Positions 5,459 to 58,845 of a stretch of DNA of 64,000 bases are shown here, in pieces (within the stretch, counting starts at the first letter, position 1; each line of letters opens with the position of its first letter). Origin of the DNA: a virus. Lineage: Duplodnaviria; Caudoviricetes. The DNA is taken from positions 1 to 64,000 of IMG/VR virus record IMGVR_UViG_2791355157_000004. One strand, written 5' to 3'. Made by a program: the position numbers and the translations under genes. A model generated the notes under the pieces. The model made no database searches. It was given only the letters and a program-made list of their open reading frames with translations, and was not told where the DNA came from.

Positions 5459-5627
5459 AAAGTTTCCCTGCGATTTCATAAGCGCCGGCATGCGCAACAT
5501 GGGTAAAGGTACTGTGCTGATTGAGCCACCAGGGCGGCGCCCAGATGTGCTTGTGCCGGTTATAGCGGCTCGTCATGTAACCGGTGTCATAGACGATTTT
5601 TAGGATTTCGCCTATAGAAATTGTCAT
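5409..5627 (-). CDS. Mini-protein (MTISIGEILKIVY...)
   Basis: ATG at 5627 with GAGG RBS embedded in a heptad array. Confidence 0.55.
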   Translation of the reverse strand: MTISIGEILKIVYDTGYMTSRYNRHKHIWAPPWWLNQHSTFTHVAHAGAYEIAGKLYDTRRFTGPYLVGWDD

Positions 5628-5685
5628 AAGTATTACCTCACACTTTCTTTCCTCACATTTCACACTTATGAAGTCATACACCACA
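5622..5685. repeat. Heptad array H1 (parS/operator-like) upstream of parA
   Basis: tgtcata agtatta cctcaca (ctttcttt) cctcaca tttcaca cttatga agtcata caccaca; 7-bp period. Confidence 0.75.
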
Positions 5686-5696
5686 AGGGATTTTTT

Positions 5697-6341
5697 ATGA
5701 TCACGATTGTTGGATGTAACAAAGGCGGCGCGGCAAAAACAACCACAGCGGTAAACCTGGCTGTAGGCCTTGCCATGCGCGGACTGGACGTGTGCCTCGT
5801 GGACGCGGACGCGCAGCGTTCGTCGGCCCGATGGTACGCGACCAGGGAAGCGGCGGAGCTCAAACCAACCATCACCCTCGTAGAGAAACGTGAGAACCTG
5901 TCACAGACCCTGAAGAGCCTGGACCAGCGTTTTGACCACGTCATCGTGGACGTCGCCGGCCGCAACTCGCGTGAACTGATCACCGGTTGCACCGTCGCGC
6001 ATCAGATCATCGCGCCCCATCAGTGTTCACAGCTGGACCTCGATACCCTGCTTGAGCTTGAGGAGCAGCTGGTGGCCATCCGTGACCTGAACCCCGATCT
6101 GAAGGCCTACTGCTATCAGAGCATGGCCACCACTAACCCGGTCATTCGCGGCACAGAGCGCAGCGAGTTCCTGGGGTTCGTGCAGGAGATCGAGGGCATC
6201 ATCCCTCTGGAGTCCACAGGCTGTTATCGCAAGGTTTACCGTGACGTGATCCCAGAAGGAAAGTCAGTCCTGGAAACCGAAAACGAAAACGCCCGTAAGG
6301 AAATCATGGGCCTCATTGAGGAGCTGTTCGATGTTAAATAA
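5697..6341 (+). CDS. parA: ParA/ParF-type partition ATPase (short, type Ib)
   Basis: Deviant Walker A KGGAAKTT, DADAQRS, IVDVAG; 214 aa with no N-terminal HTH. Confidence 0.92.
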   Translation: MITIVGCNKGGAAKTTTAVNLAVGLAMRGLDVCLVDADAQRSSARWYATREAAELKPTITLVEKRENLSQTLKSLDQRFDHVIVDVAGRNSRELITGCTVAHQIIAPHQCSQLDLDTLLELEEQLVAIRDLNPDLKAYCYQSMATTNPVIRGTERSEFLGFVQEIEGIIPLESTGCYRKVYRDVIPEGKSVLETENENARKEIMGLIEELFDVK

Positions 6342-6576
6342 GCCGAAACGTGAGATCACGGAAGCTGCTGCGGATGCCCTGGCCAGACGCCTGGCAGACC
6401 GCAACTACGGGGAAGAGCGACCGGATGATACCGTGGCGCGTACGACTATCTCGCTGCCAAGGTCTCTGCTGGTTCAGCTGGAAGACCTGGCCATGAAGAA
6501 CAAGCGCAACGGTATTGAACCGAAGAGCGTGAGCGCCATTGTGCGTGAAGCGACGGAAGCCTATCTGCGTAAGTAA
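6331..6576 (+). CDS. ParG/omega-like ribbon-helix-helix centromere-binding protein
   Basis: Coupled to parA; RHH pattern RTTISLPRSLLVQLEDLA...SVSAIVREA after a flexible N-terminus. Confidence 0.8.
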   Translation: MLNKPKREITEAAADALARRLADRNYGEERPDDTVARTTISLPRSLLVQLEDLAMKNKRNGIEPKSVSAIVREATEAYLRK

Positions 6577-6578
6577 TC

Positions 6579-6641
6579 TGTATGAGGTATGAAATAACAC
6601 TTAATAAGTAATATTTCACACTTCATACATCTCAAATAATA
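6579..6641. repeat. Heptad array H2 downstream of the par operon
   Basis: tgtatga ggtatga aataaca cttaata agtaata tttcaca cttcata catctca aataata. Confidence 0.75.
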
Positions 6642-8513
6642 CCCCGATCGCTGAGTAAATATCCTGACCCTCCAGACGGTATGCCTGCCAGACCAGCGTG
6701 CTAAACCACGTGGGCGGCCGGCACCAGGGATGCTCATGGTAGTCCTTCGGTGGGTGTGGGCTTACGCTGAACAGCTCATTCAGGACGAGGAGTATTGAGG
6801 ATTTCTGCGATCGCATCATTGATGGTGTGCCAGAAAAAGTAATTTCCGCCATAGCCCTGGGCATGGTAGGGCGCGTTGACCCATGCGGACATCTGATTTC
6901 CTATTGCCTGTACGCAGTCGGGTTTACCCTCCCACTGGCAAAGCCGTATGATGTTCCTGGGTTCCTGCAGGTAGACTGCCTGCGCCAGTATGTCGATCAG
7001 CCGCATAATTCCCTCAGATAGTCGCTGGCGTTCGCCGTGAAGCCCGGTACCGGGTCGGTCATAATGCAGGCCTGGTACCAGACGGTGAAATGCGCTTCCT
7101 GCTGCAGCGCGGTCAGGATGTCAGTCAGGCGCGCCATAGACTTTCCCTCCGATCACCTGCACCAGTTTCATGGTCTGAAAGACCGCGTCGTCGTCGAAGT
7201 TATTTTTTATCTGCAGACCGACCACGGCCCAGATATTCTGGTAGGTCGGTTTGTGCCGCAGGAACCAGAGCAGATCACACAGCTTCATAGTCGCATACCT
7301 CCTGCAGCTCCCGCACAAAGCGCATGTAGTGATGCGCCATCTTGCTGCCCAGGTACTCCGTGATCGGGCGGAACCAGACGACGTTGTAAGCTGGTTCATT
7401 GCCTTGCTCGTCGATTTCGGCCAGGACATCCAGGATTTTCATCATACCTCACACTTAATAAGTCATAAGTAATACTATTGGATATGGAGTTCATCCAGCA
7501 ACTCGAAGGCATCATAGAACGGCTCAGGGACCGAACCGGTGCTTTGCTGCCACATCCGGCACAGGCGATTAAATATAATCTCATAGCCGTACTGGTCGAT
7601 CTGCCACAGGAAGTACGTCAGTGACATTATTCACCCTCCCGGGATAACTGGCACATTTCGTTCAGCAACATCAGCAGGTTCACAGACTCGTCTCCGGATA
7701 ACGGCACTAAGATACAGACGAAGCCGGAGAGGTCATTCCCCAGCAGGGACATCAGACCGAGTAACCGCACATTGCCTCCACTGCTCGCATCAGCATCCGT
7801 GCTTTCCACTCGTTCAGCTTGTCAGAGTGGCCTGGCTCAACCTGGTCCATTGCGTTGACTAAAATCCACCAGCCGCCGGTGTAGTGCGCCCGGCCGTGCA
7901 TGTGCTCTAAAACGTTTACGATCCGCATATCGCCTCCGACATGGCCAGAATTTCGAATGCCGAACTGCAGGCACCACGTACCTCATCGCGACGGAAAAGC
8001 CACCAGAGGACTTCTTCTCGCACTCTGAGGTGTTCAATCGAGGTAAACAGGCTCAGGAGCTCTACGAGGCGCACAGAGCCTCCAGCCACCAGATAAAGCC
8101 CAGGTTTGGGACGGCATCGACAGACAGTCCGTGAACGAGGCTGAAGCCATCCTCGCACTCATACCCGCATATCTCCCGTACCAGGTTAACGAGTTCCATC
8201 TTTCCTCCAGTTGCCACCTTGCCGGCAGCACAGAGACGTCTGAGGCACGATCACCGGAAAGGTGAGTGCCCGTTCTTACGCATTAAATGCGGTAACCATT
8301 ATCTGGAATCATTTGTTAATACACAGCTTAAAAGTGCGCACTTCCGAAGCGCTGATCGTGCATCATGCCGAGGTAATCCATCTGCACACTGGCAATTAAA
8401 CTGCCTGCTGACAGGGCTTCGCGGACTGCCAATGCCCATACGTTTGTATACGCATCGACGTGATCAGGTTCATCGAGCATCAACAGGATCTGACACATTT
8501 TGTAAGGTTGCAT
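6616..8513 (-). other. Tandem array of 45-76 aa mini-protein genes (family B)
   Basis: ORFs from the track or hand-translated: 6616-6819, 6776-7006, 6997-7137, 7121-7288, 7275-7442, 7475-7627, 7627-7770, 7752-7928, 7916-8074, 8062-8199, 8328-8513; most start M[KR][LI]x[DE][ILV]L and overlap the neighbour. Confidence 0.7.
7440..7474. repeat. Heptad array H3
   Basis: catcata cctcaca cttaata agtcata agtaata. Confidence 0.7.
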
Positions 8514-8549
8514 AAAGGATCTTCCAGATGATCGCAAGATCTACAGACG

Positions 8550-8581
8550 TAAAAAAGCCCCGTGACATAATCACGAGGCTT
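8550..8581 (-). terminator. Rho-independent terminator closing the putative ncRNA 1
   Basis: Minus strand aagcctcgtga-ttatg-tcacggggc followed by TTTTTT. Confidence 0.8.
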
Positions 8582-8975
8582 AGTTACATTGTCTTTCGCA
8601 GGTGCTTGCTAGGAGTAGTTCGGTTCCCCAACCTTACTGCTCTGACCTGGATGACGACAGCTCAACTTCATCCTAGCAAGCGCAGGAAGGCTTGTCACCT
8701 CCGGTGTATTCCCCAAACTCAATCCAGACATTAACTGACACCTGCAACTAAGACTCTCAGGTCTTTGCCCCGGACTCCGACAGGATAAACAGGCTATCTG
8801 TGATACTGGTCCCAACTACCATATGTTGGCTCTGTCACCGTCTCGCTGTACGATAACAAGCACCTGATAAAGTGAGAGTTTTAGCTAAGTTGAGAATCTC
8901 TGCTGGCTTAAAAGACAGTGACTGTCGTGGTCACTTCGTTCCCCGTTTGTTGTGTATCACAACGGGGGCATTAGG
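8550..8975 (-). ncRNA. Putative large structured ncRNA 1 (~430 nt), class unrecognised
   Basis: No credible ORF; several 7-12 bp long-range complementary segments; ends in an intrinsic terminator. Confidence 0.6.
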
Positions 8976-9012
8976 CACCCTTTTGTCCAAATTAGGAATA
9001 GTCCTAAAATTA

Positions 9013-9054
9013 CTTCACACTTAATTTTTCATAAAAAATACGTATGAAGTATTA
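9013..9054. repeat. Heptad array H4
   Basis: cttcaca cttaatt tttcata aaaaata cgtatga agtatta; next to the palindrome at 8993-9006. Confidence 0.65.
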
Positions 9055-9499
9055 CGATTTTTGACCACTGAGTGCCTTCACGAATTCCATCATCAGGCTG
9101 GGCGAAATATACCGGTCTACCTCCCGGACCATAAGCTCCCATATTTGCCAATAAACGACGTAGTTCGGGTAGTTGACCTCGGGATCGTCTATCTCGGTAA
9201 GCAGATCTGATATGCGCATCAGCTTTCTTCCCAGCGCATGAGCCAGGAATAACAGCTGCTGACTCTGCCACCGCCCAGCGGGCCAGTAACGGCATCATTC
9301 ATCCAGACGGCAAGATAGCGCTCGTCGGTCTCACCGTGTTGCATGGCAATCAGGATGTCAATGACGTGCATATCTCCTCCACAAATCGCATGTAGTTCAT
9401 GTCCAGGGTAACATTGCTTTCCAGTAGGGCAGTACACCAGACTTCGTTATAGCCGTAGCCCTCCTGCTTAAACAGGCGCAGCAGTTCGAGTATCCGCAT
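9052..9499 (-). other. Three further family-B mini-protein genes
   Basis: 9052-9219 MRISDLLTEID, 9219-9371 MHVIDILIAM, 9350-9499 MRILELLRLF. Confidence 0.7.
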
Positions 9500-9632
9500 T
9501 CGGAAGCACTCCGGAAAAAAATAACGCCATCCCCTAAGGGATGGCAGTTGGATTATTCGATGAAACCAGCGTACACGCAGAACAGGCTGAGCAGAAACAC
9601 CCCGCCAATGGCCAGGGCAATATGATGTCTTT

Positions 9633-10841
9633 TCATGAAAGGGGATATTCCGCTTTGAGGATCTCTTCATGCAGGTCGTCCGACAGCTTGGCTACGGTGA
9701 TGTTGCTGCCGGTAATCTGGCTCGCAATATCGCTCATCATGCTGCTGCGCGCAATCTGGGAGAAGATTTCGAGGTAATGCCAGCGAACCCAGTTCATGTA
9801 GTTCGGGTGACACTTGAAGCAGTCGTGCACGCACACCAGATGAAACGGATTGTGCTGGCGCATTGAACTGAGCAGGCATTGCAGCTCCAGGTGCTCGTCC
9901 GCGCTGAGGTGGCCATAGTTCTGATCATCCAGATACTCCACCAGCACCAGGCTCATAAAGCCGGATTTGCGGGTGCGGTTCAGGATGCGCAGCAGCTTCT
10001 GGTCACACAGGCGATCGTCACGGGTACCGCCTTCCAGCCATGACTGCGTCTGCAGTCTGGCGACTGCATCCTTGTCATAGCTGCAGCGGCGGCCCATTTC
10101 ACGGACGACCAGGGCATCCACAGAGTGGGTGACGTTTGCCACCAGGCTGATGCCTTTCTCGGTGCCGGCATTGACGTAGTGCTCGATGTCGATCGGCATA
10201 CCGAGGAACTGCACCGCGGTGGAGACCTTGTCCATTACTTTAATTACAACATCCCCGCCGTCTGGCAGGGTCCAGGAATGGTCCTCTGCGAACGGCTGCC
10301 ACAGCGTCTGAATGTCGTCACGCAGGGCGCGAACCCCTGGAAGGATGGCATCCTGCATTTTGTAGAACATGTCCAGCGCTGGCGTGCCGTCGCCGAATGC
10401 GGATTTAGGCTGCGCCTGTGATCCGTACATCGAGGTCATCAGGGCGTTTTTGACCACCTTGCGAACCAGCTGGCCAACCACGTTGAGTTTCTCGTTCATC
10501 CAGGCGTAAGCGTTGGTGTAAACGTCCTGGCGTTTCTGGCCGGTCAGCCCGCAATTACGCGCTGAGATTTTGCAACCGGACAGGGCAGCCAGGATCTGAA
10601 TGCCAGAGGCGCACGCATCGTGGCCAACCATGTAGCCTGAAGGGACACCCGCCAGGGTGTCACGCCAGGCGAGCACACCTGCAAGAAACTGAGCCGGTTC
10701 CTCTGCGTCACGCACAAGGGATTCCAGATGATGCTCATTCTCGCTGAACCAGTTCAGGCGGGTCTCGTACTGCTCGCCATCCAGGCCAAAGCTGTTGGCA
10801 ATGTCGATCATGAGGTACTGCTTGCCAGTGAAGTGCTGCAT
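9633..10841 (-). CDS. N4-like RNA polymerase II subunit 2 (gp16-like)
   Basis: T7-type motifs A (DACASGIQ), B (RKVVKNALMTSMYGS) and C (VHDCF); 402 aa matches N4 gp16 size. Confidence 0.93.
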   Translation of the reverse strand: MQHFTGKQYLMIDIANSFGLDGEQYETRLNWFSENEHHLESLVRDAEEPAQFLAGVLAWRDTLAGVPSGYMVGHDACASGIQILAALSGCKISARNCGLTGQKRQDVYTNAYAWMNEKLNVVGQLVRKVVKNALMTSMYGSQAQPKSAFGDGTPALDMFYKMQDAILPGVRALRDDIQTLWQPFAEDHSWTLPDGGDVVIKVMDKVSTAVQFLGMPIDIEHYVNAGTEKGISLVANVTHSVDALVVREMGRRCSYDKDAVARLQTQSWLEGGTRDDRLCDQKLLRILNRTRKSGFMSLVLVEYLDDQNYGHLSADEHLELQCLLSSMRQHNPFHLVCVHDCFKCHPNYMNWVRWHYLEIFSQIARSSMMSDIASQITGSNITVAKLSDDLHEEILKAEYPLS

Positions 10842-11659: not shown

Positions 11660-12034
11660 ATGGGTTTCCCCTCACCAGCCACGGACTACGTTGAGCATCG
11701 AATTTCCCTCGATGGGCTATGCAATACCCGTGCGCCTTCCGTCTACCTGTTTAAGGCAGGTGAGACGGTAATGCGCGCCGGGATCAGCAAAGGTTCTCTG
11801 CTCGTCGTTGACAGCGCGATTACGCCATCAGACGGTAACGTGGTGGTGGCCATGATTGATGGAACATTTCGTGTGGCGCGTTACTGTACGCACCCGGCAC
11901 CGTATCTGGAAGATATGAATGTGCCGGGGCGTCGGCTCGCGACAGCAGGTGAGGATGTCATGCAGGGGGAGGAGACGATTTGTTTTGGCGTAGTCACCCA
12001 CGCTCTGGGAGTGCTGCGGTCAGCCTACCAGTAA
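11660..12034 (+). CDS. UmuD'/HumD-like S24-fold protein (pre-processed form, catalytic residues missing)
   Basis: Begins MGFPSPATDYVE like cleaved UmuD'; GETVM and FRVARY replace the GDSM serine and TVKR lysine motifs; SOS box upstream. Confidence 0.85.
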   Translation: MGFPSPATDYVEHRISLDGLCNTRAPSVYLFKAGETVMRAGISKGSLLVVDSAITPSDGNVVVAMIDGTFRVARYCTHPAPYLEDMNVPGRRLATAGEDVMQGEETICFGVVTHALGVLRSAYQ

Positions 12035-12343
12035 GCGGGCAATCGTGCGGACGGCTTCCAGCTCAGCCGGCGTGGCTTTGCCTTTAAGGGCTGCATTACG
12101 TGCTTTCCAATCCAGGCTTTTCACCTGGTCTGCCAGGGCGACGTTCGCCGGCGTGCCGGCGATCGCCACTTCCATCGGGTAACCCTTGATCTTGGTGGTG
12201 AGCGGGACGCACACCATCAGGTCGTGCTTATTATAGTAGGCCGGGCTGAGTACCAGCGCCGGTCTGCGGCCGGCCTGTTCGTGGCCAGCCTGCGGGTTGA
12301 AGTCCAGCCATACGATATCGCCGGCTTCAGGGACAAATGCCAT
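12020..12343 (-). CDS. mazF: MazF/PemK endoribonuclease toxin
   Basis: GDIVWLDFNPQAGHEQAGRRPALVLSP, VPLTT, ALADQVKSLDWKAR. Confidence 0.95.
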   Translation of the reverse strand: MAFVPEAGDIVWLDFNPQAGHEQAGRRPALVLSPAYYNKHDLMVCVPLTTKIKGYPMEVAIAGTPANVALADQVKSLDWKARNAALKGKATPAELEAVRTIARLLVG

Positions 12344-12594
12344 TACCAGATCTCCTTACCTACTTCGCCGAAGTCCTGCTCACCGTGACGGTTTTCAGGC
12401 GTGATGCGGCTCACCAGGGCTTCCAGGGTGGGCTTAGCGCGTGCTGGTTCAATCACAAGGCGCGACACGTTAAAGGCATCCTTCTGGACGGTCACTTCGA
12501 CTTCAGCGTCGATACCGAGGTCCATCAGGTTCATGAGGTTAGTGGGGATGCGGACTGCAGGGCTGTTGCCCCAGCGCTTAATAGTCTGACGCAT
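12343..12594 (-). CDS. mazE: MazE/AbrB-family antitoxin
   Basis: IKRWGNSPAVRIP, TLEALVSRITPENRHGEQDFG..GKEIW; coupled to mazF. Confidence 0.95.
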   Translation of the reverse strand: MRQTIKRWGNSPAVRIPTNLMNLMDLGIDAEVEVTVQKDAFNVSRLVIEPARAKPTLEALVSRITPENRHGEQDFGEVGKEIW

Positions 12595-48348: not shown

Positions 48349-48423
48349 TAGTTCGCTGATCTGACATAACTTATTATGGGGGAGCGTACACACTCCCCCT
48401 TCTTTATGTCTGAGGATCGGCAC

Positions 48424-51400
48424 ATGGCCTATGAGCTAAATTACGGACAGCCCCTGGCCGGGCAGTCCGTTGGCGACGTGAAAAAGCAGCAGGTGGCAGA
48501 AGCCTCCGCAGCTAAGCAGCAGGAGCTCGACCCTGCCGCCGCCTACAACAAGGACCTGGCGAGCCTTGACCCCGTCCTGCTCCAGCAGAAGTACGGCGAT
48601 AAAGCGGTCGTTGACCAGCTGGACTACAAGCTGGGCGCGGCACAGAGCCAGCGCATGGACAACTGGGATCGCAGCGCAGGTGAAGTCACCAGCGATACCG
48701 GTTTATCGGTTGCCAAAGGCGCAGTTGGCCTGGGCGGTTTCCTGTCGAGCTTCGCCCGTATGGCGGGCCAGGGCATGGCCGTCACTGGTCAGAACTGGAA
48801 CGACCCTGAACAGGCACTGAAGAACCTGCACGCCGTTGAAGTGGGCAATGCCCGCTCCGCTGCGGCGCAGAACCAGAGCATCAATAATGCCAATGACGCG
48901 CTGACGCAGGCCCTGAGCCGTCGCAGCCAGCTGGCAGAGACCCGCACCAACGCGGATATTCAGGATCGCCAGCAGCAGAACACCGCGCAGTATGACGCCG
49001 ACCTTAAAGCCGGTGCGTCCCCGCTGGTGGCCGGACTGGAGCAGCTGGGCCGTGGCTTTGTTGACGGTGCCAGCGCAGTCGCCAAAGACCCGACCTACCT
49101 CAGCAACTTCGTCGCCCAGCAGGTCCCTTCCCTCGCCCTCGGTCCGGCCAGCGCCGTAGCCGCCCGTGCTGAAGTCGCAGCAGGCCTCACTGGCTCAGCA
49201 GCCCGTGACCTTCTGAAGTCTGAACTCGGTAAAGCCGCGGTCCAGAAAGCCGGTACCCGTAACCTGATGGCAAGCATCGGGATCACCGAAGGCGCTGGCG
49301 CCGGTCAGCAGACGTTTGACCAGGTGAACCAGACCAGCTTTGATGATCTGCAGAAGCACTCGCAGGACTACCGTGACCTCATCGCCCAGGGCAATTCCCC
49401 TGAGGATGCCCGCGCTGTCGTGGCCCAGCGTTCCGCCAATGCGGCAACGCTTATCCAGACGCCTGCCGCTGCCCTTGCCGGCAAGATTGCCGCGAAGTTT
49501 GAGCTGGCACCGCTGTCAGGTGGTGGCGCTACCGGTGCTGCCCGCGTCGGTCATGCCCTGATGAGTACGCTCAAAGAGACCGGTGAAGAGACCCTTCAGT
49601 CCGGTGGCGGTCAGCTGGCGCAGAACGTCGGCGTGAAGAGCTACGCGGACGACACGCAGTCCCTGTCGGACGGTGTCGGTGAGCAGGCCGGTATGGGTGC
49701 GCTCGGTGCCGTCGGTTTAACCACCGCAGTCCAGGCGCCAAGCGCCGCTGCCGGCGTGGCAAAAGTCACTGCGCGCCAGACCGCTGACATGGCGAAACAG
49801 GCGGCCGGTTTCTCAATGACCAAACTGCGCGATATCGCCGAGAAGCGTACCGCGCTGAACCCTGAAGACCAGGCCGCTGCCGATGCACAGACACAGTCTG
49901 AGTCCATCAACACGGCCGCTCAGGAGTACGCCCAGGCGCAGCCGCAGGCGGCTACGGATGAGCAGGCCACTGAAGAAGCCCCTGCCGCACCCGAAGATAC
50001 CCGCATTGGAAAGCTGGCTCAGCTGAACCAGTTCCTGTCACACCCGCAGGCACCGGAAGCGCAGAAGCGTGACCTGGTGGCCAAAGCCGTGGTGCAGATG
50101 GGCAACATGGTCAATGAGTACAAAGCCATGGGTGCAGAGGTAGAAGCCGATCCTGACGCTGACCACACGGTAACCCTGGGCAAGATGCAGGCGATGGAAA
50201 AAGCCTTCGCCTCTCCGGAATTCCAGAACATCATTGCCCACCAGCAGCACTACGCGCAGAACCCGATCGACGTCGCTGCTGCGGATGAAGCGATCCCCGA
50301 ACAGGTCGGTACCGCAACGCCTGAGATGCAGCAGCACGCCAAAGACGTGGCGGATCAGGCGGCTATTGAGCCGGAAAAAATCCCTGAGCCGCTGTATCAG
50401 AAGGTGATCAGCAACGGTAAAGCGCTGGGCCTGAACCCGCAGCAGATTGCGCAGGTACAGGGTGGCCTGAAGGTCGCGCAGCTGTCGCAGACCAAAGGCA
50501 TCGACATGGTCAATAAGGACGTGACAGAAGGCGGCAACGCCCAGTTCATGAGCCTCAAGGACCACGTGAAGGGCGTCTATGCCGGCCTCGCTGCCAATGA
50601 CATGCAGAGCGCGCAGAATGCCATGACCGGCCTTCAGGCGTTTGCGCAGCACATGGCCAGCAAAGCGGCTGACTTTGACGCTGCCTACGATCGCTGGCAG
50701 GCCAACCCGGCAGCCGGTCCGGTCAGCGTGACCCGTGCCGACGGTTCCACCTACAACTCGCTGGTAACCGCGGGCCAGCAGGCGAAACCGATGTTTGCCT
50801 CCGGCAAGTCATCCGTGCTGATGGCGAAGATCCGCAATGAAGCGAAGCTCCTGGCGGACACCTACAACCAGATGCTGTCGGACCATCCGGAGCTGTCTGG
50901 CTCACCGATTTCACTGGCCCCTGCCCCGCAACAGCAGCAGGCACAGCCAGTGGCGGCACCTAAACCCGCTGCACCGGTGCGTGAATCCACAACCGGTACC
51001 GGCGTCTTTAACGGTGAGCGTGAGCTGACCCGCGCTGAGATGCAGGACCTCGCCTCCGGTGAAGTGACGATCGCCGACCTCAAACAGAAGTGGGCTGACG
51101 AAGCCGCACCGGCGCCGGCGGTACAGGAGCCTGTGGCGGAAGCAGCCCCTGAACCTGCCCGGGCAGCTGAGCCGGTACCGCAGGAATCAGTACCAGCACA
51201 ACCAGAGCCAACTCCGGTGGAATCTCCAGCAGAAACCAGGGACAATGTTACTGAGCCGTTAAGTAAAGCAGACCCAGTAACTGCTAACCCAGAACCTGTG
51301 ACTCCACAAACTGATGAAGCCGGGGAGCCGCAGAATGAACCGTCTGAACCATCTGAGCCTGTGGCTGATCGTGAGCCTGCAGGTGAACCTGTGGTGGCTG

Positions 51401-54400
51401 AAGAGGACACTCAGACGGGCGCTGAGCGACTTCTTGCTAATCTGACACCACGCCTTAGCCGCGAGCGTACAGAAAAGGAGAGCGAGGCCGATCACGAAGC
51501 CCGCGTCTCCAACGCCGTGGTGAAATGGTTTGCGCCGGCTAAAGCCCGTACCCCCTTCTCCCGCACCCTGGATTTCATGTCGAAACTCGGCGAGGCGCTG
51601 CGCACATCGGCGGATGCCACCGGTGAACTGCTGGGCCTGAAAGACGGTGAGCAGCTGACCCAGGAAAACATGGATGCACTGGAGACGCTGACCTACCTCA
51701 ATGACCGGTTCCGCGATGAATACGCGCAGGCCATTGCTGCCAAGCTGGCCAAGGTCAAAGACCTCAATGCCCTGCCGTGGCGCAACAGCCCTATCCTGTA
51801 TTTCACCCGCGTCAGCCAGAAAGGTGAGCTGCGTTCGCACCAGACGTCACGTCACGCCACCGATGCGATCGGCATGGCGGCGCTGAAGTTTGCCCTGGAT
51901 AACCTGAACGCCACCGGGCCAACGTCACGCGAAGACCTGGCGGAAGACCTGAACATCAGCGCTGACCAGATCACCGACGCCATGATGGAGCGGTTCATGA
52001 CCGGCTCGCAGGCATTCAGCGTGGTGGCCGGCCGTCTCGCCGCCTCGATTACCCGCACCATGGGCCTGAAAGCCAGTGATGACGCCCCCGGCAACATCGC
52101 CAACGGGATTCCGCTGTCGCTGGCCATGGATGCGCTGAACGTGCTGCAGAAGCTGGGCCTGGCGAAGATCGACTCCCTGAAAATGGATGTGGGTACCGCT
52201 GATGCACCGGAGATTAAAACCTTCAAATCGGTGAGTTTCGTCAACGATGAAGGCAGTGCGCTGCGCGACATCGATGCTGCGCTGGGCAGCCAGCTGGACC
52301 TGCTGTCCCGCATGATTGACCCGGAGAGCAAAGCCTCTGCGTACATCGATGCGCTGCCGCCTGTCGGTGGCGATCGGCTGGGCCGCTCACAGGTACAGAA
52401 GCTGTCTTCCCGCCTGAAGGATACTGTACGCAACCTGCAGAAAAAGGCGTTCTACCTGAACACCGACCTGCATGATCTGGTTGAGGGCATGGGCTTTGAC
52501 GCCGTGGGTAAAATGCTGGGTATCCGGGAAACGGATAACCTCAACCGGATGCACGCGGAAAGCGTCGAGGGCAAGAACGTCTCCATTCGTTCAGCCCTGG
52601 CAAGCTGGCAGCGCGGCATGTCTGACCTGCAGGCGAAAGCCGGCGATCGCAACCTGGGTGACATCCCGGTGCGCTTCGCCTGGTCCATCGGCAGCAACAT
52701 GCGCGCCATGCTGAACTCCACCACCTTCAACCCGCAGCGGCATAAATTCCACCGCGAGCTGATGACCGGTGAACCCCGTGCGATCACCCTGGGTGATAAA
52801 AAGCAGGTTCACCAGTTCCAGATGGCGGTAGCCCAGGCAATGGGCGTGAAGGTTGACCGCATGAGTAACGCAGCGGCCAAGGCTAAAGCAGCCGAGAAGC
52901 TGGCTGATCCGACCGTTGCCGCTGCCGTGGATACGCTGAAAGCGCACCTCGGTGACTACTCCGGCCTGACGGCCAGCGACGTAGGGGTGATCACTGCGGC
53001 GGTCGGCATTGCCGGCGAGGGCATGAAATCCTTCCATGGTCTGCTGGCTCAGGCGAAGTTCCTGCATGCGCAGGAGAATGGCGCCACCAGCTTCATGAAC
53101 CATCTCACCTTTGAGCTCGACGGTAAAACGGATGGTCCGGCAAATGCCCTGGTGCATTTCGGATCGGCGCGGGGTGACAGCACCTTCTTCAGCATGCTGA
53201 AGAAAGTCGGCCTGTTCGTGAACGATGCCTCCACCGCGCTGAACGTGTTCTCCGCCGGTGACTCCGACATCTACCAGGAAGTGTCAGCGCGCATCAACAA
53301 CGTGCTGAAAGCGGCGAATCCGGACAACATGGAACCGGGTGCGGTGCGTGCCATGAAGGGGCAGCTTCGTCTGCTGCAGCTGGCGGGTAACATTGAGATT
53401 GCCGATCCGGATGATATCAAGACGGCAACCGCCACCCGTAACATGGCCAAGAACCCGGTGACGCAGACCGTCTATTCTGCCGGTGACGACGCCAAGGTCC
53501 GCAGCCTCAGTAAGCAGATGCAGACGGCCGTGTATGAGGAACTCAGTAAGGCGCTGGCTCAGGGTACCCAACTTGACCAGAGCATCGTGGATGCCGTGGA
53601 GTCCCTGACCGGGAATACTGCGCTGCGCGATCCGGCGAACTATCAGGGTTTCCGGTTCTCGCCCAACGACAACACGCTGATGGAAAACCACCTGACCACC
53701 GGCATGGGTGCGGTGCTGAATACGGCGATCGGCGACGTGCTGGGTAACGTGGTGACCTCCGGCCAGACGCTGGCCAAGGCCGCTGCCGTTCAGCACCAGT
53801 TCTTCGCCGCCGCGTTCACCAAAGCCCGCCAGGCGAAACTCGACGCGCTGCGTGCTGCAGGCGAACTGTCGGGATTTGAAGATCTGTCCGCGGCTCAGGT
53901 GCAGGAAGTCTATGATTCCGTGGTTCACCTCGCACCGATTTACCACAACGCCCTGACCAGCGGCACGAACCCGCGTGACGGGATGCTGATGAGTAAAGAG
54001 GTCCGCGGCAAATTCACTGAGCAGCGCGCCGAGTCAGTCTTCGGTGACAAAACCGATATCCCGGCGCTGGACTTTGAGGCGCCAGGCGCACGCCCTGCTC
54101 CGATGATGACCATCTCCTCAGGCGATGCCACCATGATGGCGCTCTACTTCCTGAAGCACGACAACGCCCTGAACGTCTTTGACGGACTGGAGGTTATGCC
54201 AGGGGAGTTCGATGCCGCCGCGAAGGCGATCAACGAAGCGGTGTTCCAGGGCTGGCAGTTTGGCCTGATGAGCAGCATTGCCGAGTCGTATGAAGCCGGT
54301 ATCCGCGCTGTCACGCCTGACCTGTTCAGCGGCCTGTCTGTGGCAGAGCTGGGCAACATGGCGCGTAACCTGCGCATTCCCGCGAAGCAGCTGAAGGGTC

Positions 54401-57400
54401 TCGATGCCGGTCAGCTGATGACGCGCATCATGCAGGAGGCGGAGGGAACCAACATCGATCTGAGTGACCTTGCCACCAACATCGATGCGACGAAGAGCGT
54501 CATCTTCAACGAACTGCCGACCTCGACCGACCACATGGCCGGCCACGAGCAGCCGGTGATTAACCGTGCTGATATCGCCCCGGTCACTGACCCGGTGACG
54601 CAGGTGGCCAGCCGCGCTAACGCCTACCGCATGCGGAAACGTAAAGCGGAAGATCTGCAGCTGTCGCAGAATGACACGGCACTCGACCGGCACCTCAAAG
54701 CGGTGAACCCGGGCAAGGGTGACCCTGTCACGGTGTTCACCAAAGACCAGGTCCTGCAGGCGCTGAAAGGCTACCTCGATGAGGTTGCCGGTAAGAAGGC
54801 GCGTATCCCGCAGTTCGTGCTGAGCCAGATTGAGAAGCAGCTGCCTGATGACCTGAGCGTCCATATCGGCACGCCGCAGAACATCCGCAGTCACATCCTG
54901 GCGCAGTTCCCGGATCTGGGCAGCGGTACGCTGGACCTGGTGCAGGGTATGACGTACGGCAACACGGTGTTCATCGGCAACCGCTCCGCAGAAACCATCC
55001 TGCATGAGCTGGTTCACGCCGCGACACAGAACGTGATTGACCAGTATTTCAGTGACGCCACCCGGCTGTCGCCAGAGCAGCGCAGCAGTATCGGAGCACT
55101 CAACCGCATCCTGACCGACTTTCTCTCAGAGGAAGCCGCCGGCCTGCCGGTTGAACAGCGCCGCTTTGGCAAGTCGGGCAACGTGCAGCAGTACCTGCAG
55201 ATGCTGGTCACTACCGGCGATCGCACCACTGCGCTGAAAGAGTTTGTGGCCTGGTCGATGACTAACCCCTGGTTAGCCGCTGACCTGCAGGCCGTGGAGA
55301 ACACGGATAAATCCACCCACATCCTGGGCCGCATCCTGAAGGTGATCGCCCGCATGCTGGGTATCGGTACCGCAGCGCAGAGCTATTTCACCTCGATCGC
55401 CGGCCACGTGCAGCAGGCCATGGGCCCTGCCTACACGCGGGACGTCACCGGCACAGCGACGGCGCTGAATCAGCTCGACCTTGATGGCCTGTTCGCCCGC
55501 CTGCGCTCCGAGCGTACGACGGTCAGTCATCAGGCGCATCTGGATCAGGTGTTCGCTAACCTCAAACAGAACCTGATTGACCGCATCACGACCACGGCGC
55601 AGCCGGTAGCCGGTATCAAAACCGCTGCTGACCAGCTGGACCTGGACGCCATCGACCCGGCTATCAGCCAGTCCGCTGCGCAGTTTATGGCGAGCGGCTA
55701 CCCGATGAACGCCCAGGAAGAAATGGTGTTCAAGATGCTGCAGGCGTCACTATCCACGGCGTTTGAGGCGCACCCTGCCCGTGCCATCGAAGCGCGTAAG
55801 CTCTTCAATGAAGCGGCGCAGCGCCTGACACCGGCAGACTTTGGCCTGGGACCGATGGGCCAGATGCGCTACGACGCGCTGTTTGGTCAGGGTCAGCATG
55901 CAGATACCCAGCTGGCCAACTTCCTGGCCGTGGCCCAGGTCAACCAGCAGCTGCGTGACGCACTGCGTCAGATGTTCGTGAAGCGCAGCAGCCAGCGATC
56001 GCAGAACTGGGAAGAGCGCATCACCAAATCGGTGGATGACGCCATCCGCTGGGTGGCCAACCTCGGTACCGGTATTCGCCGCTCTACCGAAGTGCAGAAG
56101 CGCCTCGATATTCTGACGAAGAACCTGACGCACTTTGAGGCGCAGGCGAAGCAGAACGTCATTGAGAAAGCGACCAGCGGTATCGGTGATTCACTGGATC
56201 AGCTGAACAACGTGGTGAACCAGAAGAAGGCCAATGGTGCTGCCTGGCTGGAAGCCAACGCCGAGCAGCTGGCACAGAAGGTGCCGAACGCAGTCGCACA
56301 GAACTATGCCGAGTTTCTGATGCGCGGTGTGGCCGCGATGGGCAGCAAAGGGGCGAGCAGCCGGTTTGCCGAAGCGCTGACTTCCACCATTAACCAGGGC
56401 GATGCGGATACCCCGCTCGGGCCGCTGCGCTCACTGGTGGTGGAGATGATGGGCGTGACTGACTCCAACCGGGCAACGCTTGAGCTGGTCTCCCGCGCCA
56501 AGACCTCGGTGGACAAGGTGCGTCAGATCATCCGCGAGCAGGTACCGAAAATCCTCAGCGAGCGGTTCAGCGCCCCGCTGTCACAGCAGGAGTCCGCTGC
56601 CCTGCACGCCGGCCTGGGTAAGACCGATGCTGCGTCACTGCTGAAAGCAGGCTACAGCCATACCGATGTGCAGCGCCTGTTCGCTGACCAGGCGTATCTG
56701 GTGAATGAAATCAGCAATGCGTCCGCTGCGATCGTCGGCCCTCACGCTGCTTCGCAGCGCCTGGCCTCCGACGCGCTGGCGCACTTTATGGTGACGGGTG
56801 AGGTGACCAACAGCCACCTGCTGACCAATGCCTACCAGATTGCTAACCTGACCGGTACCGGTATTGCGGTGCAGTCTGCTGATGCGAAAGCCAATCAGTC
56901 GGCGCTTGATAAACTGGTGTCGCTGCTGGCGATCAGCAAACTGCCGGCACAGCAGAAGAGTGACGTCGCCGCAGTCATGGCGCGTGAGGAGAAAGCGAAC
57001 CCGGGCGACAATGGCGCCACGTTCTCGCTGAACTACCTCAACAACCTGCGTGAGCGCGAGGATGCTCGCCTCAATGCGATGAACGGCATCAAGGGTGCGA
57101 TGCACACCACGTTTGACGCCCATAAGTCGGTGGTCATTGCCACGGCGGCCCAGGGTGCTGAGCTGCTCAAGCGCGGTTATATCAAGGGTGCCATGGTTCA
57201 GGGTGATCCGCAGGCTAACCACGGCGTCATGCATTACTACGAGTCCTCTGAGGGCGGTCGCCCGCAGTGGAATCAGGGTGCGATGCAGACGGTGCAGGTC
57301 ACGGCCGGCGGCGTTGACCCGTATACCGGTCGCATGATCACCCCGGTTTCCACCCCGCGACTGCAGGGGGGTACCCAGGTGAGTGCGCTGGCAGCGAAGC

Positions 57401-58845
57401 GTCGCCAGCAGGCACGAACCGGCCGGGCTTTCATGCCGAACGGTAACAACATGAATCTGCGCCCTGTCTTCGACATCAACGGCGCCACGGTGGCGTATGA
57501 ATACTCGGTGCCGCATGACGTCCGGGACGCGAAGCTTGAGGCGAACACGGACTTTGGTCACAACCTGGGTGTGTGGGAAGGCCGTATTCAGGAGGAGCTG
57601 CTGAGCCAGGGCTTCAACCAGAAGCTGGTGGAAGTGCTGCACGATCGCTACACCGAGGATATGAAGACCACGGGCCGCGATAACGAGTACATCGCCATCA
57701 ACGCGAAGTCCAAAGACCCGCAGGTGCGTGAGATGTATGGCCTGATGCCGGTTGAGATGAAGGCGATGGTGGAGAATGTGTTCGGGGGTGATCTGATGGT
57801 GCGTAAGGATATGCTGGATAACGCCCTGGGCTTTCGCCGTGCGTCGGTCAAGGAGATCTGGGACGGCAACAGCCGTCTGAATGCGGGGGCACAGAGTGCT
57901 GTGAAAGCGGTCTCTGAGGTGGTGATGGGTAAATCCGCTGCGCGATACCTGCGCAAAGGGGAGCGCTTCCTGCAGGAGGCCGTATCCAGTGCAAAAGACT
58001 GGATCGTCGTACGTTCCCTGGTGGTGGCACGTGACAACATCGTCTCAAACGTGACCCAGATGCTGAGCCACGGTATGAACCCTCTGCAGGTAGCGCGTAA
58101 AAGTGCCGAAGCAATGGTGCTGGTGGATGCGTATCAGAAGAACGAGCGCCGCATGAACGAGCTGTCGCTGCTGATCCAGAACGGCGTGACGCCGGCGAAG
58201 CATCCGGCATTCAACCGCGAGCTGGAATCGCTGCGTGCGGAGAACGCCCGTAACCCGGTGCATCCCCTGGTGATGGCCGGCCATCTGCCGACGATCGCCG
58301 AAGGGCTGTCTGAGAACGACGACTACAGCATGCGCAATGACTTTAACGGCTGGGTTGAACGCCAGACCGCGAAGTTACCGAAGGGTGTGACCACGGCTGC
58401 GCGCTATGCGCTGATTGCCCGCGGTACCCCGCTGTATGCCGGTCTCAACCGGATGATTCAGTATGGTGATTTCACTGCGAAGTACGCCCTGTATGACCAT
58501 CTCATGACCCGGAAATCGGACAAGATGGACCAGCAGGGGGCACTGCAAATGCTGGAGGATGAGTTCGTGAACTACGCGCTGCTGCCTTCCCGCTCCCGTG
58601 ATTACCTGGAGAGCATGGGTGCAACGTGGTTCCTGAACTACAAACTGCGCATTCAGAAAATCCTGCTGCGCTCGATGCGTGACAATCCGCTGCGCTTCCT
58701 GGCGATCGCCGGTGGCTTTAATGCGGCTGACGTGCCGAACGTGCTGGATGCAAACCTGGTGACGAATTCGGTGAGTCCGAACCTGGGGATGGGGGCGCTG
58801 TTCAGAGCGCATGAAACGCACCCGCTCTGGTGGCTTATCGACTGA
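48424..58845 (+). CDS. Virion-encapsidated RNA polymerase (N4 gp50-like)
   Basis: About 3470 aa, no Cys seen; motifs A (ELDGKTDG), B (RNMAKNPVTQTVY) and C (NVFDG); C-terminal QYGDF..KY. Confidence 0.95.
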   Translation: MAYELNYGQPLAGQSVGDVKKQQVAEASAAKQQELDPAAAYNKDLASLDPVLLQQKYGDKAVVDQLDYKLGAAQSQRMDNWDRSAGEVTSDTGLSVAKGAVGLGGFLSSFARMAGQGMAVTGQNWNDPEQALKNLHAVEVGNARSAAAQNQSINNANDALTQALSRRSQLAETRTNADIQDRQQQNTAQYDADLKAGASPLVAGLEQLGRGFVDGASAVAKDPTYLSNFVAQQVPSLALGPASAVAARAEVAAGLTGSAARDLLKSELGKAAVQKAGTRNLMASIGITEGAGAGQQTFDQVNQTSFDDLQKHSQDYRDLIAQGNSPEDARAVVAQRSANAATLIQTPAAALAGKIAAKFELAPLSGGGATGAARVGHALMSTLKETGEETLQSGGGQLAQNVGVKSYADDTQSLSDGVGEQAGMGALGAVGLTTAVQAPSAAAGVAKVTARQTADMAKQAAGFSMTKLRDIAEKRTALNPEDQAAADAQTQSESINTAAQEYAQAQPQAATDEQATEEAPAAPEDTRIGKLAQLNQFLSHPQAPEAQKRDLVAKAVVQMGNMVNEYKAMGAEVEADPDADHTVTLGKMQAMEKAFASPEFQNIIAHQQHYAQNPIDVAAADEAIPEQVGTATPEMQQHAKDVADQAAIEPEKIPEPLYQKVISNGKALGLNPQQIAQVQGGLKVAQLSQTKGIDMVNKDVTEGGNAQFMSLKDHVKGVYAGLAANDMQSAQNAMTGLQAFAQHMASKAADFDAAYDRWQANPAAGPVSVTRADGSTYNSLVTAGQQAKPMFASGKSSVLMAKIRNEAKLLADTYNQMLSDHPELSGSPISLAPAPQQQQAQPVAAPKPAAPVRESTTGTGVFNGERELTRAEMQDLASGEVTIADLKQKWADEAAPAPAVQEPVAEAAPEPARAAEPVPQESVPAQPEPTPVESPAETRDNVTEPLSKADPVTANPEPVTPQTDEAGEPQNEPSEPSEPVADREPAGEPVVAEEDTQTGAERLLANLTPRLSRERTEKESEADHEARVSNAVVKWFAPAKARTPFSRTLDFMSKLGEALRTSADATGELLGLKDGEQLTQENMDALETLTYLNDRFRDEYAQAIAAKLAKVKDLNALPWRNSPILYFTRVSQKGELRSHQTSRHATDAIGMAALKFALDNLNATGPTSREDLAEDLNISADQITDAMMERFMTGSQAFSVVAGRLAASITRTMGLKASDDAPGNIANGIPLSLAMDALNVLQKLGLAKIDSLKMDVGTADAPEIKTFKSVSFVNDEGSALRDIDAALGSQLDLLSRMIDPESKASAYIDALPPVGGDRLGRSQVQKLSSRLKDTVRNLQKKAFYLNTDLHDLVEGMGFDAVGKMLGIRETDNLNRMHAESVEGKNVSIRSALASWQRGMSDLQAKAGDRNLGDIPVRFAWSIGSNMRAMLNSTTFNPQRHKFHRELMTGEPRAITLGDKKQVHQFQMAVAQAMGVKVDRMSNAAAKAKAAEKLADPTVAAAVDTLKAHLGDYSGLTASDVGVITAAVGIAGEGMKSFHGLLAQAKFLHAQENGATSFMNHLTFELDGKTDGPANALVHFGSARGDSTFFSMLKKVGLFVNDASTALNVFSAGDSDIYQEVSARINNVLKAANPDNMEPGAVRAMKGQLRLLQLAGNIEIADPDDIKTATATRNMAKNPVTQTVYSAGDDAKVRSLSKQMQTAVYEELSKALAQGTQLDQSIVDAVESLTGNTALRDPANYQGFRFSPNDNTLMENHLTTGMGAVLNTAIGDVLGNVVTSGQTLAKAAAVQHQFFAAAFTKARQAKLDALRAAGELSGFEDLSAAQVQEVYDSVVHLAPIYHNALTSGTNPRDGMLMSKEVRGKFTEQRAESVFGDKTDIPALDFEAPGARPAPMMTISSGDATMMALYFLKHDNALNVFDGLEVMPGEFDAAAKAINEAVFQGWQFGLMSSIAESYEAGIRAVTPDLFSGLSVAELGNMARNLRIPAKQLKGLDAGQLMTRIMQEAEGTNIDLSDLATNIDATKSVIFNELPTSTDHMAGHEQPVINRADIAPVTDPVTQVASRANAYRMRKRKAEDLQLSQNDTALDRHLKAVNPGKGDPVTVFTKDQVLQALKGYLDEVAGKKARIPQFVLSQIEKQLPDDLSVHIGTPQNIRSHILAQFPDLGSGTLDLVQGMTYGNTVFIGNRSAETILHELVHAATQNVIDQYFSDATRLSPEQRSSIGALNRILTDFLSEEAAGLPVEQRRFGKSGNVQQYLQMLVTTGDRTTALKEFVAWSMTNPWLAADLQAVENTDKSTHILGRILKVIARMLGIGTAAQSYFTSIAGHVQQAMGPAYTRDVTGTATALNQLDLDGLFARLRSERTTVSHQAHLDQVFANLKQNLIDRITTTAQPVAGIKTAADQLDLDAIDPAISQSAAQFMASGYPMNAQEEMVFKMLQASLSTAFEAHPARAIEARKLFNEAAQRLTPADFGLGPMGQMRYDALFGQGQHADTQLANFLAVAQVNQQLRDALRQMFVKRSSQRSQNWEERITKSVDDAIRWVANLGTGIRRSTEVQKRLDILTKNLTHFEAQAKQNVIEKATSGIGDSLDQLNNVVNQKKANGAAWLEANAEQLAQKVPNAVAQNYAEFLMRGVAAMGSKGASSRFAEALTSTINQGDADTPLGPLRSLVVEMMGVTDSNRATLELVSRAKTSVDKVRQIIREQVPKILSERFSAPLSQQESAALHAGLGKTDAASLLKAGYSHTDVQRLFADQAYLVNEISNASAAIVGPHAASQRLASDALAHFMVTGEVTNSHLLTNAYQIANLTGTGIAVQSADAKANQSALDKLVSLLAISKLPAQQKSDVAAVMAREEKANPGDNGATFSLNYLNNLREREDARLNAMNGIKGAMHTTFDAHKSVVIATAAQGAELLKRGYIKGAMVQGDPQANHGVMHYYESSEGGRPQWNQGAMQTVQVTAGGVDPYTGRMITPVSTPRLQGGTQVSALAAKRRQQARTGRAFMPNGNNMNLRPVFDINGATVAYEYSVPHDVRDAKLEANTDFGHNLGVWEGRIQEELLSQGFNQKLVEVLHDRYTEDMKTTGRDNEYIAINAKSKDPQVREMYGLMPVEMKAMVENVFGGDLMVRKDMLDNALGFRRASVKEIWDGNSRLNAGAQSAVKAVSEVVMGKSAARYLRKGERFLQEAVSSAKDWIVVRSLVVARDNIVSNVTQMLSHGMNPLQVARKSAEAMVLVDAYQKNERRMNELSLLIQNGVTPAKHPAFNRELESLRAENARNPVHPLVMAGHLPTIAEGLSENDDYSMRNDFNGWVERQTAKLPKGVTTAARYALIARGTPLYAGLNRMIQYGDFTAKYALYDHLMTRKSDKMDQQGALQMLEDEFVNYALLPSRSRDYLESMGATWFLNYKLRIQKILLRSMRDNPLRFLAIAGGFNAADVPNVLDANLVTNSVSPNLGMGALFRAHETHPLWWLID

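Follow-up and report, generated by a model that had tools for sequence, protein, structure and literature searches.

Several phage origins are primed by a transcript, among them the R-loop origins ori(uvsY) and ori(34) of T4 and the primary origin of T7, the last of which lies just downstream of the RNA polymerase gene. At such origins RNA from a phage promoter primes the leading strand, and the site itself consists of a short promoter with unwinding elements, without a long conserved RNA fold or plasmid homologs. For the N4-like phages we know of no defined replication origin. Among plasmids, the ColE1/pMB1 type is small and Rep-less and relies on a long, structured, non-coding module, RNA II, with hairpins at its 5′ end and an alternative fold; its start is put at nucleotide 641 of ColE1 in a passage of PMC5864857. 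Here we describe an element at positions 8549..8978 on the minus strand of a 64,000-nucleotide (nt) stretch of viral DNA (the window, bases 1-64000 of a 73,312-base-pair (bp) virus record, to which all coordinates refer). The element begins with a conserved 5′ block, GCCUAAUGCCCCC, from 8976 and ends in a U-run near 8549. Two hallmarks, a 3489-amino-acid (aa) open reading frame (ORF; 48376-58845) and a T7-like RNA polymerase (RNAPII) split into 269-aa and 402-aa genes, identify the window as that of an N4-like (Schitoviridae) Pantoea phage. Like the T7 origin, the element lies a short way past a polymerase gene, ~650 nt downstream of that for the RNAPII large subunit (9633-10841, minus strand). 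On balance we think it somewhat probable that the element is a pre-primer/origin module of the RNA II kind, which this phage clade acquired in a single capture.

The module in plasmids and in one phage clade

A BLAST search of Escherichia coli genomes with the element returned 34 records, 33 of them plasmids, and the same search of PLSDB returned at least 163 plasmids, many of only 1.7-5 kb. By genus the PLSDB matches come from Klebsiella (55), Escherichia (43), Salmonella (18), Enterobacter (17), Pasteurella (12), Citrobacter (7), Erwinia (2) and others. A profile built from five phage copies matched the plasmids pEA1.7, pTB511, L016, L017 and pEP03 over nearly its full length (E 1.9e-42 to 1.5e-34), and the phage-plasmid alignment extends from the 5′ block CCUAAUGCCCCC through the terminal hairpin and the U-run. 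A pattern scan of species-representative genomes gave 41 loci, comprising 26 members of the family (E down to 1e-131) and 15 chance 19-mers. When the family profile was run against the window with nhmmer, it matched 8988-8539 (E 9.4e-89; profile positions 10-474 of 488), the sole copy in the window. Phage and plasmid copies are ~76-82% identical, in patches. These alignments show the element to be an end-to-end homolog of a non-coding plasmid module of 430-470 nt, a family that is absent from Rfam and previously uncatalogued. A first-pass annotation, made from the window alone, had reported an unannotated non-coding RNA here: it is indeed minus-strand, paired, non-coding and ~430 nt long, but it is no orphan, as plasmid-borne members of its family exist.

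The plasmids themselves suggest what the module does. Rep-less plasmids of 1.7 kb carry it, pEA1.7 and pTB511 for example, and it is the only sequence that pTB511 (1718 bp) and L017 (2044 bp) have in common. The ORFs of these two plasmids have no Pfam match, and no plasmid-encoded initiator was recognised in them; by elimination, therefore, we infer from this comparison that the module carries the replicon of small Rep-less plasmids. MOB-suite gave no replicon type for the family records examined, and pEP3 may carry an origin module of a different kind. If the argument holds, the family represents widespread structured RNA/origin modules that stand in no catalogue, with members on 163 or more plasmids, on 26 genome contigs and in integrated islands, and many tiny Enterobacterales plasmids are thus without a recognised replicon.

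Copies were also found on larger contigs. In Alcaligenaceae (Achromobacter, Verticiella and Corticimicrobacter) the module sits on large contigs (L025:3741-4171, L063, L031:1354-1790 and L048:5667-6100); in L025 and L048 it lies between genes for a tyrosine integrase and a metallophosphatase, and L025 has a NikA/MobC-like gene further on. These copies look like integrated mobilisable elements carrying the module origin. A 5′-truncated copy occurs on a 4.8-Mb Erwinia tracheiphila contig (L059:1892-2303), and a copy in an Arsenophonus metagenome-assembled genome (L053:1205-1748) has large insertions and a different terminal hairpin ahead of the same UUUUGUACAU tail. Full or partial copies on small, high-coverage contigs labelled Collinsella, Pseudonocardia, Clostridium and Sphingomonas (L026, L045, L062, L028) are probably contamination with enterobacterial small plasmids.

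Among phages the distribution is far narrower. The RNAPII large-subunit protein matched 520 phage records, with Pantoea phage G19 the best at 94.3% identity and Erwinia phages of the S6 group next at 48.9%, a drop that places the window in a thinly sampled branch of the Schitoviridae. A scan with the same protein yielded nine metagenomic loci, four of which are close relatives (77-81% amino-acid identity) and three of which extend downstream of the RNAPII gene; it found only a distant EcP1 locus in IMG/VR and no match in the genome contigs. Of 50,697 phage records, only that of G19 contains the element (98.8% identical and unannotated there), and IMG/VR pattern scans with the conserved blocks gave a single match (L013), a chance 19-mer within a coding region. 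In three metagenomic relatives the element is 76%, 75% and 70% identical over ~510 nt, compared with 36-207 nt for the other high-scoring segment pairs in the 3 kb downstream of RNAPII; it is the best-conserved DNA in that interval, where the flanking mini-genes barely align.

The five phage copies, when aligned, consist of invariant blocks interrupted by variable hairpins. RNAalifold folded them into 114 pairs, 17 with a compensatory change, as in a hairpin that reads CCAAC/GUUGG in one form and CCGGC/GCCGG or CCUGC/GCAGG in others. The alignments show selection on the element within the phage clade. In a tree from which L053 and L059 were omitted, the phage copies form one group (Shimodaira-Hasegawa-like approximate likelihood-ratio test, 100) whose branch is long and whose internal splits are deep, and these features argue for a single old capture, in which an ancestor of the N4-like Pantoea phage clade would have acquired the module once.

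The same facts bear on whether the phage uses the module at all. A small plasmid, or a fragment of one, could have recombined into the ancestral phage and persisted without any phage function: the module is the sole similarity between phage and plasmids, and its presence in the integrase/Mob islands of Alcaligenaceae indicates that it moves between replicons. We nevertheless judge such a passenger quite unlikely, since the module keeps the same locus in five phage genomes or contigs despite RNAPII proteins only 77-81% identical, is conserved above its neighbours and has compensatory changes inside the phage clade. It has also been remodelled in a phage-specific manner, with one hairpin gained, one segment lost and a phage palindrome placed upstream.

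The gained hairpin has the tip N-GUU-GGGG-AAC-N′ (8622..8633, minus strand), which occurs in 4/4 phage rows and 0/22 plasmid rows of a 26-copy alignment, and the five phage copies close it with a G-C, C-G, A-U or U-G pair. The lost segment is one that in the plasmids contains a candidate antisense promoter, of which the -10 part is absent from 4/4 phage rows. In a relative from a seed metatranscriptome assembly, 53 nt of the variable hairpin region (8616-8670) are swapped for 79 other letters, and the replaced region matches a variable-length insert of the relatives L004, L006 and L008.

Covariation and fold of the minus strand

The 26 aligned copies (4 phage, 22 plasmid or island) yielded a consensus of 79 pairs in 15 helices. 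Cells are paired in 98.0% of cases, against 92.2% after shuffling and 34-42% when the pairing was slid by 1-3 columns. Covariation among homologs, which the first-pass annotation had named as a check, is evident: 25/79 pairs are compensatory, compared with 13.3 +/- 2.0 in shuffled alignments (0/500 as high) and 1-5 in slid ones, and the covariation score is 0.199 against 0.096 and 0.015-0.044, respectively. Phage rows alone retain 288/309 cells paired and 7/79 pairs compensatory, and between the phage and plasmid consensus 13 pairs are changed on both sides with pairing kept. G-U pairs occupy 198/2045 cells and would become C-A on the opposite strand; the folded strand is therefore the minus strand of the window. 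Folding of the window copy by itself gave -143.3 kcal/mol on the minus strand (z -2.90; 1/100 shuffles equally good) and z -2.12 on the plus strand (2/100), so that the description 'highly paired' stands as folding moderately above chance.

At the 5′ end, hairpin P1 (8941..8967, minus strand), already seen in the first pass, is present in all copies; a G-C pair of its stem becomes A-U in the plasmid rows L030, L042 and L061 (columns 26/48 of the 26-copy alignment), and its register varies among phage lineages. Next come a mini-hairpin, RCGAAGY, and a hairpin GUGAC-N7-GUCAC (8935-8917), which together span 8917..8939 on the minus strand and were found by hairpin scan and covariation; at pair 55-61 of the alignment, in the mini-hairpin, 22 copies have G-C and 4 have A-U. 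The central domain (8748..8884, minus strand) is closed by the helix CUAAAACUCUCA/UGAGAGUCUUAG and is the part best conserved out to Pasteurellaceae plasmids: 14/24 pairs of its helices 3, 4, 6, 9 and 10 are compensatory, and the nhmmer match to the Pasteurellaceae plasmids pIG1 and pB1005 falls here. Downstream lie the hairpin GGAGG-UGACAAG-CCUUCC and the start of a helix that we call X (8670..8702, minus strand; 3/6 pairs of helix 13 covary), followed by CCUAGCAAGCACCUGC (8598..8614, minus strand), which provides the 3′ strands of helices X and Z (helices 12 and 14; 5/16 pairs compensatory) and also that of an alternative helix, Y. Of the pairings listed in the first pass, 8604-8614/8671-8681 and 8748-8759/8873-8884 are thus backed by comparative data, as consensus helices 14 and 3/4.

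One helix crosses the others. Positions 8887..8894, the 5′ strand, pair with 8661..8668, the 3′ strand in the loop of the hairpin capping helix X (both on the minus strand), and this pseudoknot has 89.5% of cells paired against 22-48% when slid, with 5/6 pairs compensatory and 0/500 shuffles as high. Most copies spell it GCAAUC/GAUUGC; the window has CAACU/AGUUG. Helix Y (8599-8608/8857-8866) competes with X, Z and 5/6 and is pairable in 92.3% of cells, with one-sided G-C to G-U changes only and no compensatory change; an alternative fold through Y is possible but unproven from the alignment. The first pass had concluded that crossing helices imply multiple pseudoknots or a two-state switch, and from this at least one covarying pseudoknot survives while the switch stays unproven. 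All six of its complementary segment pairs are present in the window (9/10, 10/10, 11/11, 7/7, 8/8 and 11/12 matches), but a kissing pair, 8654-8660/8922-8928, reaches full length only in the window, as read from the alignments by eye and not by a tool's count, and is not supported.

The coding and known-RNA explanations of the interval were examined in the same way. As the first pass had said, 8550-8975 has no credible ORF: the longest is 68 aa, stops break all six frames, and the homolog alignments contain frame-breaking indels. Rfam has no family at gathering score anywhere in the window, which excludes tmRNA, RNase P and introns, again in agreement with the earlier view; between 8300 and 9200 it gives 6 chance-level matches only (E 1.4-7.8, all far under gathering scores), and ARAGORN finds no tRNA or tmRNA.

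The element ends, as predicted, in a minus-strand terminator. A stem at 8581-8555 of 12 pairs (6 G-C) with a 3-nt loop is followed by TTTTTTA; this terminal hairpin and U-run (8555..8581, minus strand; helix 15 of the consensus) is intrinsic-terminator-like and would be the putative origin-proximal end. A terminator ~35 nt ahead of the start region of the next gene, with no palindrome after it, could instead belong to a cis-regulatory leader or attenuator, or to another RNA machine such as a riboswitch or ribozyme, that controls read-through into the mini-genes from 8537 to 6776, and the wide pairability of the mutually exclusive helix Y would suit such a device. We consider this very unlikely. 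In plasmids and islands the module precedes unrelated sequence, which means that the phage mini-genes cannot be needed for its function; Rfam has no riboswitch or ribozyme that matches; and helix Y lacks compensatory change. Because the element belongs to a family of plasmid replicon modules, replication pre-primer/origin appears a much likelier function than ribozyme or riboswitch.

A second feature of the 3′ half invites a reading at the level of DNA. The element contains a sigma-70-like site, GTGACA-17-TGnTAGGAT (8670-8698, minus strand; L014 495-523 and L016 1448-1476), the hexamers of which are invariant or nearly so in 26/26 copies while the surrounding stems covary. A scan for promoter-like sites picked it out in the phage and two plasmids, and its -10 part (TGCTAAGAT / TGCTATGAT) is kept in Pasteurellaceae plasmids. 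Such a promoter could make a short primer or regulatory RNA (~80 nt in plasmids, ~150-190 nt in phage), while the upstream part would offer binding sites for proteins or fold, as single-stranded DNA, into a single-strand initiation signal. To this we give equally little credence: covariation on one strand, with many G-U pairs, spans 430 nt, and long-range helices and the pseudoknot join the 5′ and 3′ parts, a pattern that fits one long folded strand, even if G-T pairs in single-stranded DNA are still possible.

Relation to ColE1-type replicons and the proposed pre-primer

The plasmid members resemble ColE1/pMB1 in being small and Rep-less, in carrying a long structured non-coding module and in having 5′ hairpins and a possible alternative fold. 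The resemblance extends to their layout. About 65 nt past the module lies a segment homologous to ColE1 1311-1556, downstream of the ColE1 origin, and this ColE1-like single-strand initiation region (ColE1 ~1307-1556) is present in the plasmids L014, L015, L016 and L020, with no match in L017 or the phage. Two plasmids, pEA1.7 (Pfam Rop E 1.8e-24) and pEP03, carry an oppositely oriented rop gene ~400 nt past the module, an arrangement also seen in ColE1; these are 2/5 of the enterobacterial plasmids examined, and a statement in PMC8683028 describes Rop as optional in ColE1 plasmids.

A further link runs through the Pasteurellaceae. The family profile, here built from 30 sequences, matched pIG1 and pB1005 over ~310 nt (E 2.5e-22 and 8.8e-22), and a list in PMC8683028 places both among the reference ColE1 replicons of Pasteurellales. 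A Pasteurellaceae ColE1 primer described in a passage of PMC5864857 as designed 'close to the oriV' has its site inside this profile match. Like the members found here, these ColE1-type plasmids of the pB1000 group have no annotated Rep gene; they differ in that the alignment takes in neither the 5′ third nor the terminal hairpin and in that they are plasmids of another bacterial order, not phages.

Several differences set the module apart from ColE1/pMB1. It is ~430 nt long against ~555 nt (as given in a description in PMC8683028), its 3′ end is a strong hairpin with a U-run, and the phage copy has neither the ColE1-like downstream segment nor the candidate antisense promoter. By-eye resemblances to ColE1 RNA II proved no better than shuffles and were rejected. 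We accordingly file the module, by analogy, as a distinct family allied to ColE1-type replicons that would work like them, and not as a proven member.

A number of observations weigh against an RNA II-like pre-primer in the phage. No similarity to ColE1 RNA II was found by nhmmer (at E <= 100, at E <= 1 with filters off, or at E <= 10 with default filters) or by Smith-Waterman alignment (z -0.65 to 0.56; 78-251/300 shuffles as high). Rfam RNAI, which is found in ColE1 at 645-749 on the opposite strand, is unmatched in the phage element and in 5/5 small plasmids scanned, and the candidate plasmid antisense promoter, TTGCNA-17/18-CACAAT, was read by eye (8/12 consensus positions) and falls under the threshold of the scan tool. 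The phage shares no sequence with the plasmids beyond the module, the ColE1-like downstream segment included, and Rop has no match in it, in a search in which the control genomes were unmatched too. The ColE1 primer end is a product of RNase H, whereas the end of the module is terminator-like, and N4-like phages are known as lytic. A shorter sense RNA, started at the internal sigma-70-like site and stopping at the same hairpin, may be the functional transcript. Finally, 20/24 sequencing runs listed contain the stretch or part of it, and four RNA or 'RNA?' runs that were examined are contigs that span the element and the RNAPII gene alike, in which no discrete RNA or transcript ends could be demonstrated.

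Set against these points, the homology, the covarying fold and the placement in a single clade lead us to prefer a captured pre-primer/origin, and analogy and architecture suggest how it could act. Following ColE1, the module would be transcribed into a long, RNA II-like pre-primer, which would fold into nested helices, one pseudoknot and the conserved alternative helix; the two-state idea of the first pass is compatible with a folding switch like that of RNA II. On the fold would depend whether the 3′ end, with its hairpin and U-run, remains on the template, and a retained 3′ end would prime leading-strand synthesis by a family A polymerase; the gene content of the phage includes a family A DNA polymerase, a helicase and a primase. 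After capture the phage copy would have been remodelled, coming to lie behind the phage palindrome, losing the antisense-promoter segment and gaining the G-loop hairpin. It would then act in cis as an origin, either starting phage replication from a transcript, much as at T4 and T7 origins, or maintaining a carrier state in which the phage genome replicates as a plasmid.

An RNA of this kind might also act in trans. A phage-made copy of the pre-primer could act on resident small plasmids or host factors, by titrating antisense RNA or Rop or by sequestering RNase H, RNase E or Pol I, with plasmid over-replication or loss, recombination or transduction as the outcome. The palindrome before the element and the hairpin and U-run after it give it the appearance of a separate transcription unit; plasmid hosts include Erwinia, plasmid-like copies occur in contigs of Erwinia, Rosenbergiella and other Erwiniaceae, and the phage copies retain the 5′ hairpins that an antisense RNA would target. 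The patchy identity between phage and plasmids and their differing 5′ hairpin loops nevertheless make an exact antisense match with the sampled plasmids improbable, and the whole module is conserved, including the 3′ origin-proximal hairpin that a decoy would not need. We therefore think a trans-acting role unlikely.

A captured pre-primer/origin would, if it holds, give one N4-like clade a concrete and testable candidate origin. Our literature searches found no description of such an element in N4-like phages, of a Schitoviridae phage-plasmid or of phage G19. What is new here is a putative Rep-independent, ColE1-like replicon RNA in a phage family without such a description, and not a new class of ribozyme or riboswitch.

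Phage neighbourhood and a possible carrier state

Genes of the kind that maintain plasmids lie within 3.7 kb of the element. On one side are a ParA-like ATPase (5697-6341, plus strand; Pfam AAA_31/MipZ/CbiA; PHROG ParA-like, E 3.4e-32) and an Arc/ParG-like ribbon-helix-helix protein (6316-6576, plus strand; PHROG Arc-like repressor, E 7e-5). On the other, inserted between the two RNAPII subunit genes, are a UmuD-like S24 peptidase (11660-12034, plus strand), a MazF/PemK toxin (12020-12343, minus strand) and a MazE antitoxin (12343-12594, minus strand), all three recognised by Pfam and PHROG. The ParA and Arc-like genes are kept in the metagenomic relatives L004, L006 and L008, and MazEF and the peptidase in L005; none of these genes occurs within the 7.8 kb examined around the EcP1 RNAPII genes. 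Among the 25 phage ParA homologs listed, the nearest after G19 include those of D6, phiSG1, VP882 and SSU5, which we take to be phage-plasmids.

Phage-plasmids (P1/D6, SSU5, N15/VP882, phiSG1) combine partition, toxin-antitoxin and UmuD-like genes with a plasmid-type replicon, as the window appears to do; those known use Rep-protein replicons, and none belongs to the Schitoviridae. It is conceivable, if doubtful, that this clade is itself a phage-plasmid of Pantoea/Erwinia-type hosts, with a captured RNA-primed ColE1-like origin, ParA/Arc-like segregation, MazEF stabilisation and palindromes as operators of a global repressor. No integrase was seen among the ORFs scanned, in a scan that was not exhaustive, and exact terminal repeats of 50-800 nt were not found in the joined record. 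Were the clade a phage-plasmid, the module would be without known precedent in phages as a Rep-independent, RNA-primed replicon, and the lifestyle would be the first plasmid-prophage one in a family regarded as strictly lytic. A plasmid-like carrier state would be relevant to candidate phages for therapy or biocontrol of Pantoea and Erwinia, as well as to gene flow between plasmids and phages.

Upstream of the element, 16 nt before the conserved 5′ block of the RNA, lies the palindrome TAGGA-N4-TCCTA (8993..9006, unstranded), which the first pass had also located. The window, G19 and L004 keep its half-sites around a variable centre; a single base is changed (TCGGA) in L006 and L008. With one mismatch allowed it occurs 10 times in the window against 0.6 expected (0/100 shuffles), at 568, 802, 4698, 5601, 8993, 11366, 24591, 28161, 36582 and 37317, and also at L004:2021 and L005:1500. 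The sites are intergenic and upstream of operons on both strands, including that of the DNA polymerase gene (L064:4809-4822); no plasmid locus has one. In the N4-like phage LUZ7, middle promoters are described in a passage of PMC9163698 as having a stem of at least 6 bp and a loop of 3-4 nt, located ~15 bp before a start site at which G is the favoured first base. The palindrome resembles these in its 5-6 bp arms, its 4-nt centre and its distance of 16 nt from GCCUAAUG; it differs in that the LUZ7 hairpins are G+C-rich, and TAGGA-N4-TCCTA could equally be an operator for a dimeric repressor. Both a phage promoter hairpin and an operator bound by a global regulator are candidate roles for it.

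The element is embedded in a minus-strand run of mini-genes (~50-75 aa) that are mutually similar and have no PHROG match. The run at 6776-9670 comprises about ten paralogs of 46-76 aa with the common N-terminal pattern M-(R/K)-(I/L)-x-D-(I/L)-L; no PHROG family contains them, and the relatives keep weak similarity. Along the window, cumulative GC skew falls to a shallow local minimum at 9-11 kb and has a maximum near 25-26 kb, the point at which transcription changes direction; the minimum near the element is too weak to stand alone as evidence.

The first pass had also placed a heptad array, H4, upstream of the element. No tandem array could be reproduced there, only one TTCACACTT word at 9014. 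That word belongs to a duplication: the region upstream of parA at 5601-5700, with its palindrome, TTCACACTT and ATGAAGT start, is partly repeated on the plus strand at 8993-9060, where the ATG beside the element opens a frame of 6 codons only. The motif TTCACAYTT is found at 6615 and 10859 as well, making 4 sites against 0.82 expected.

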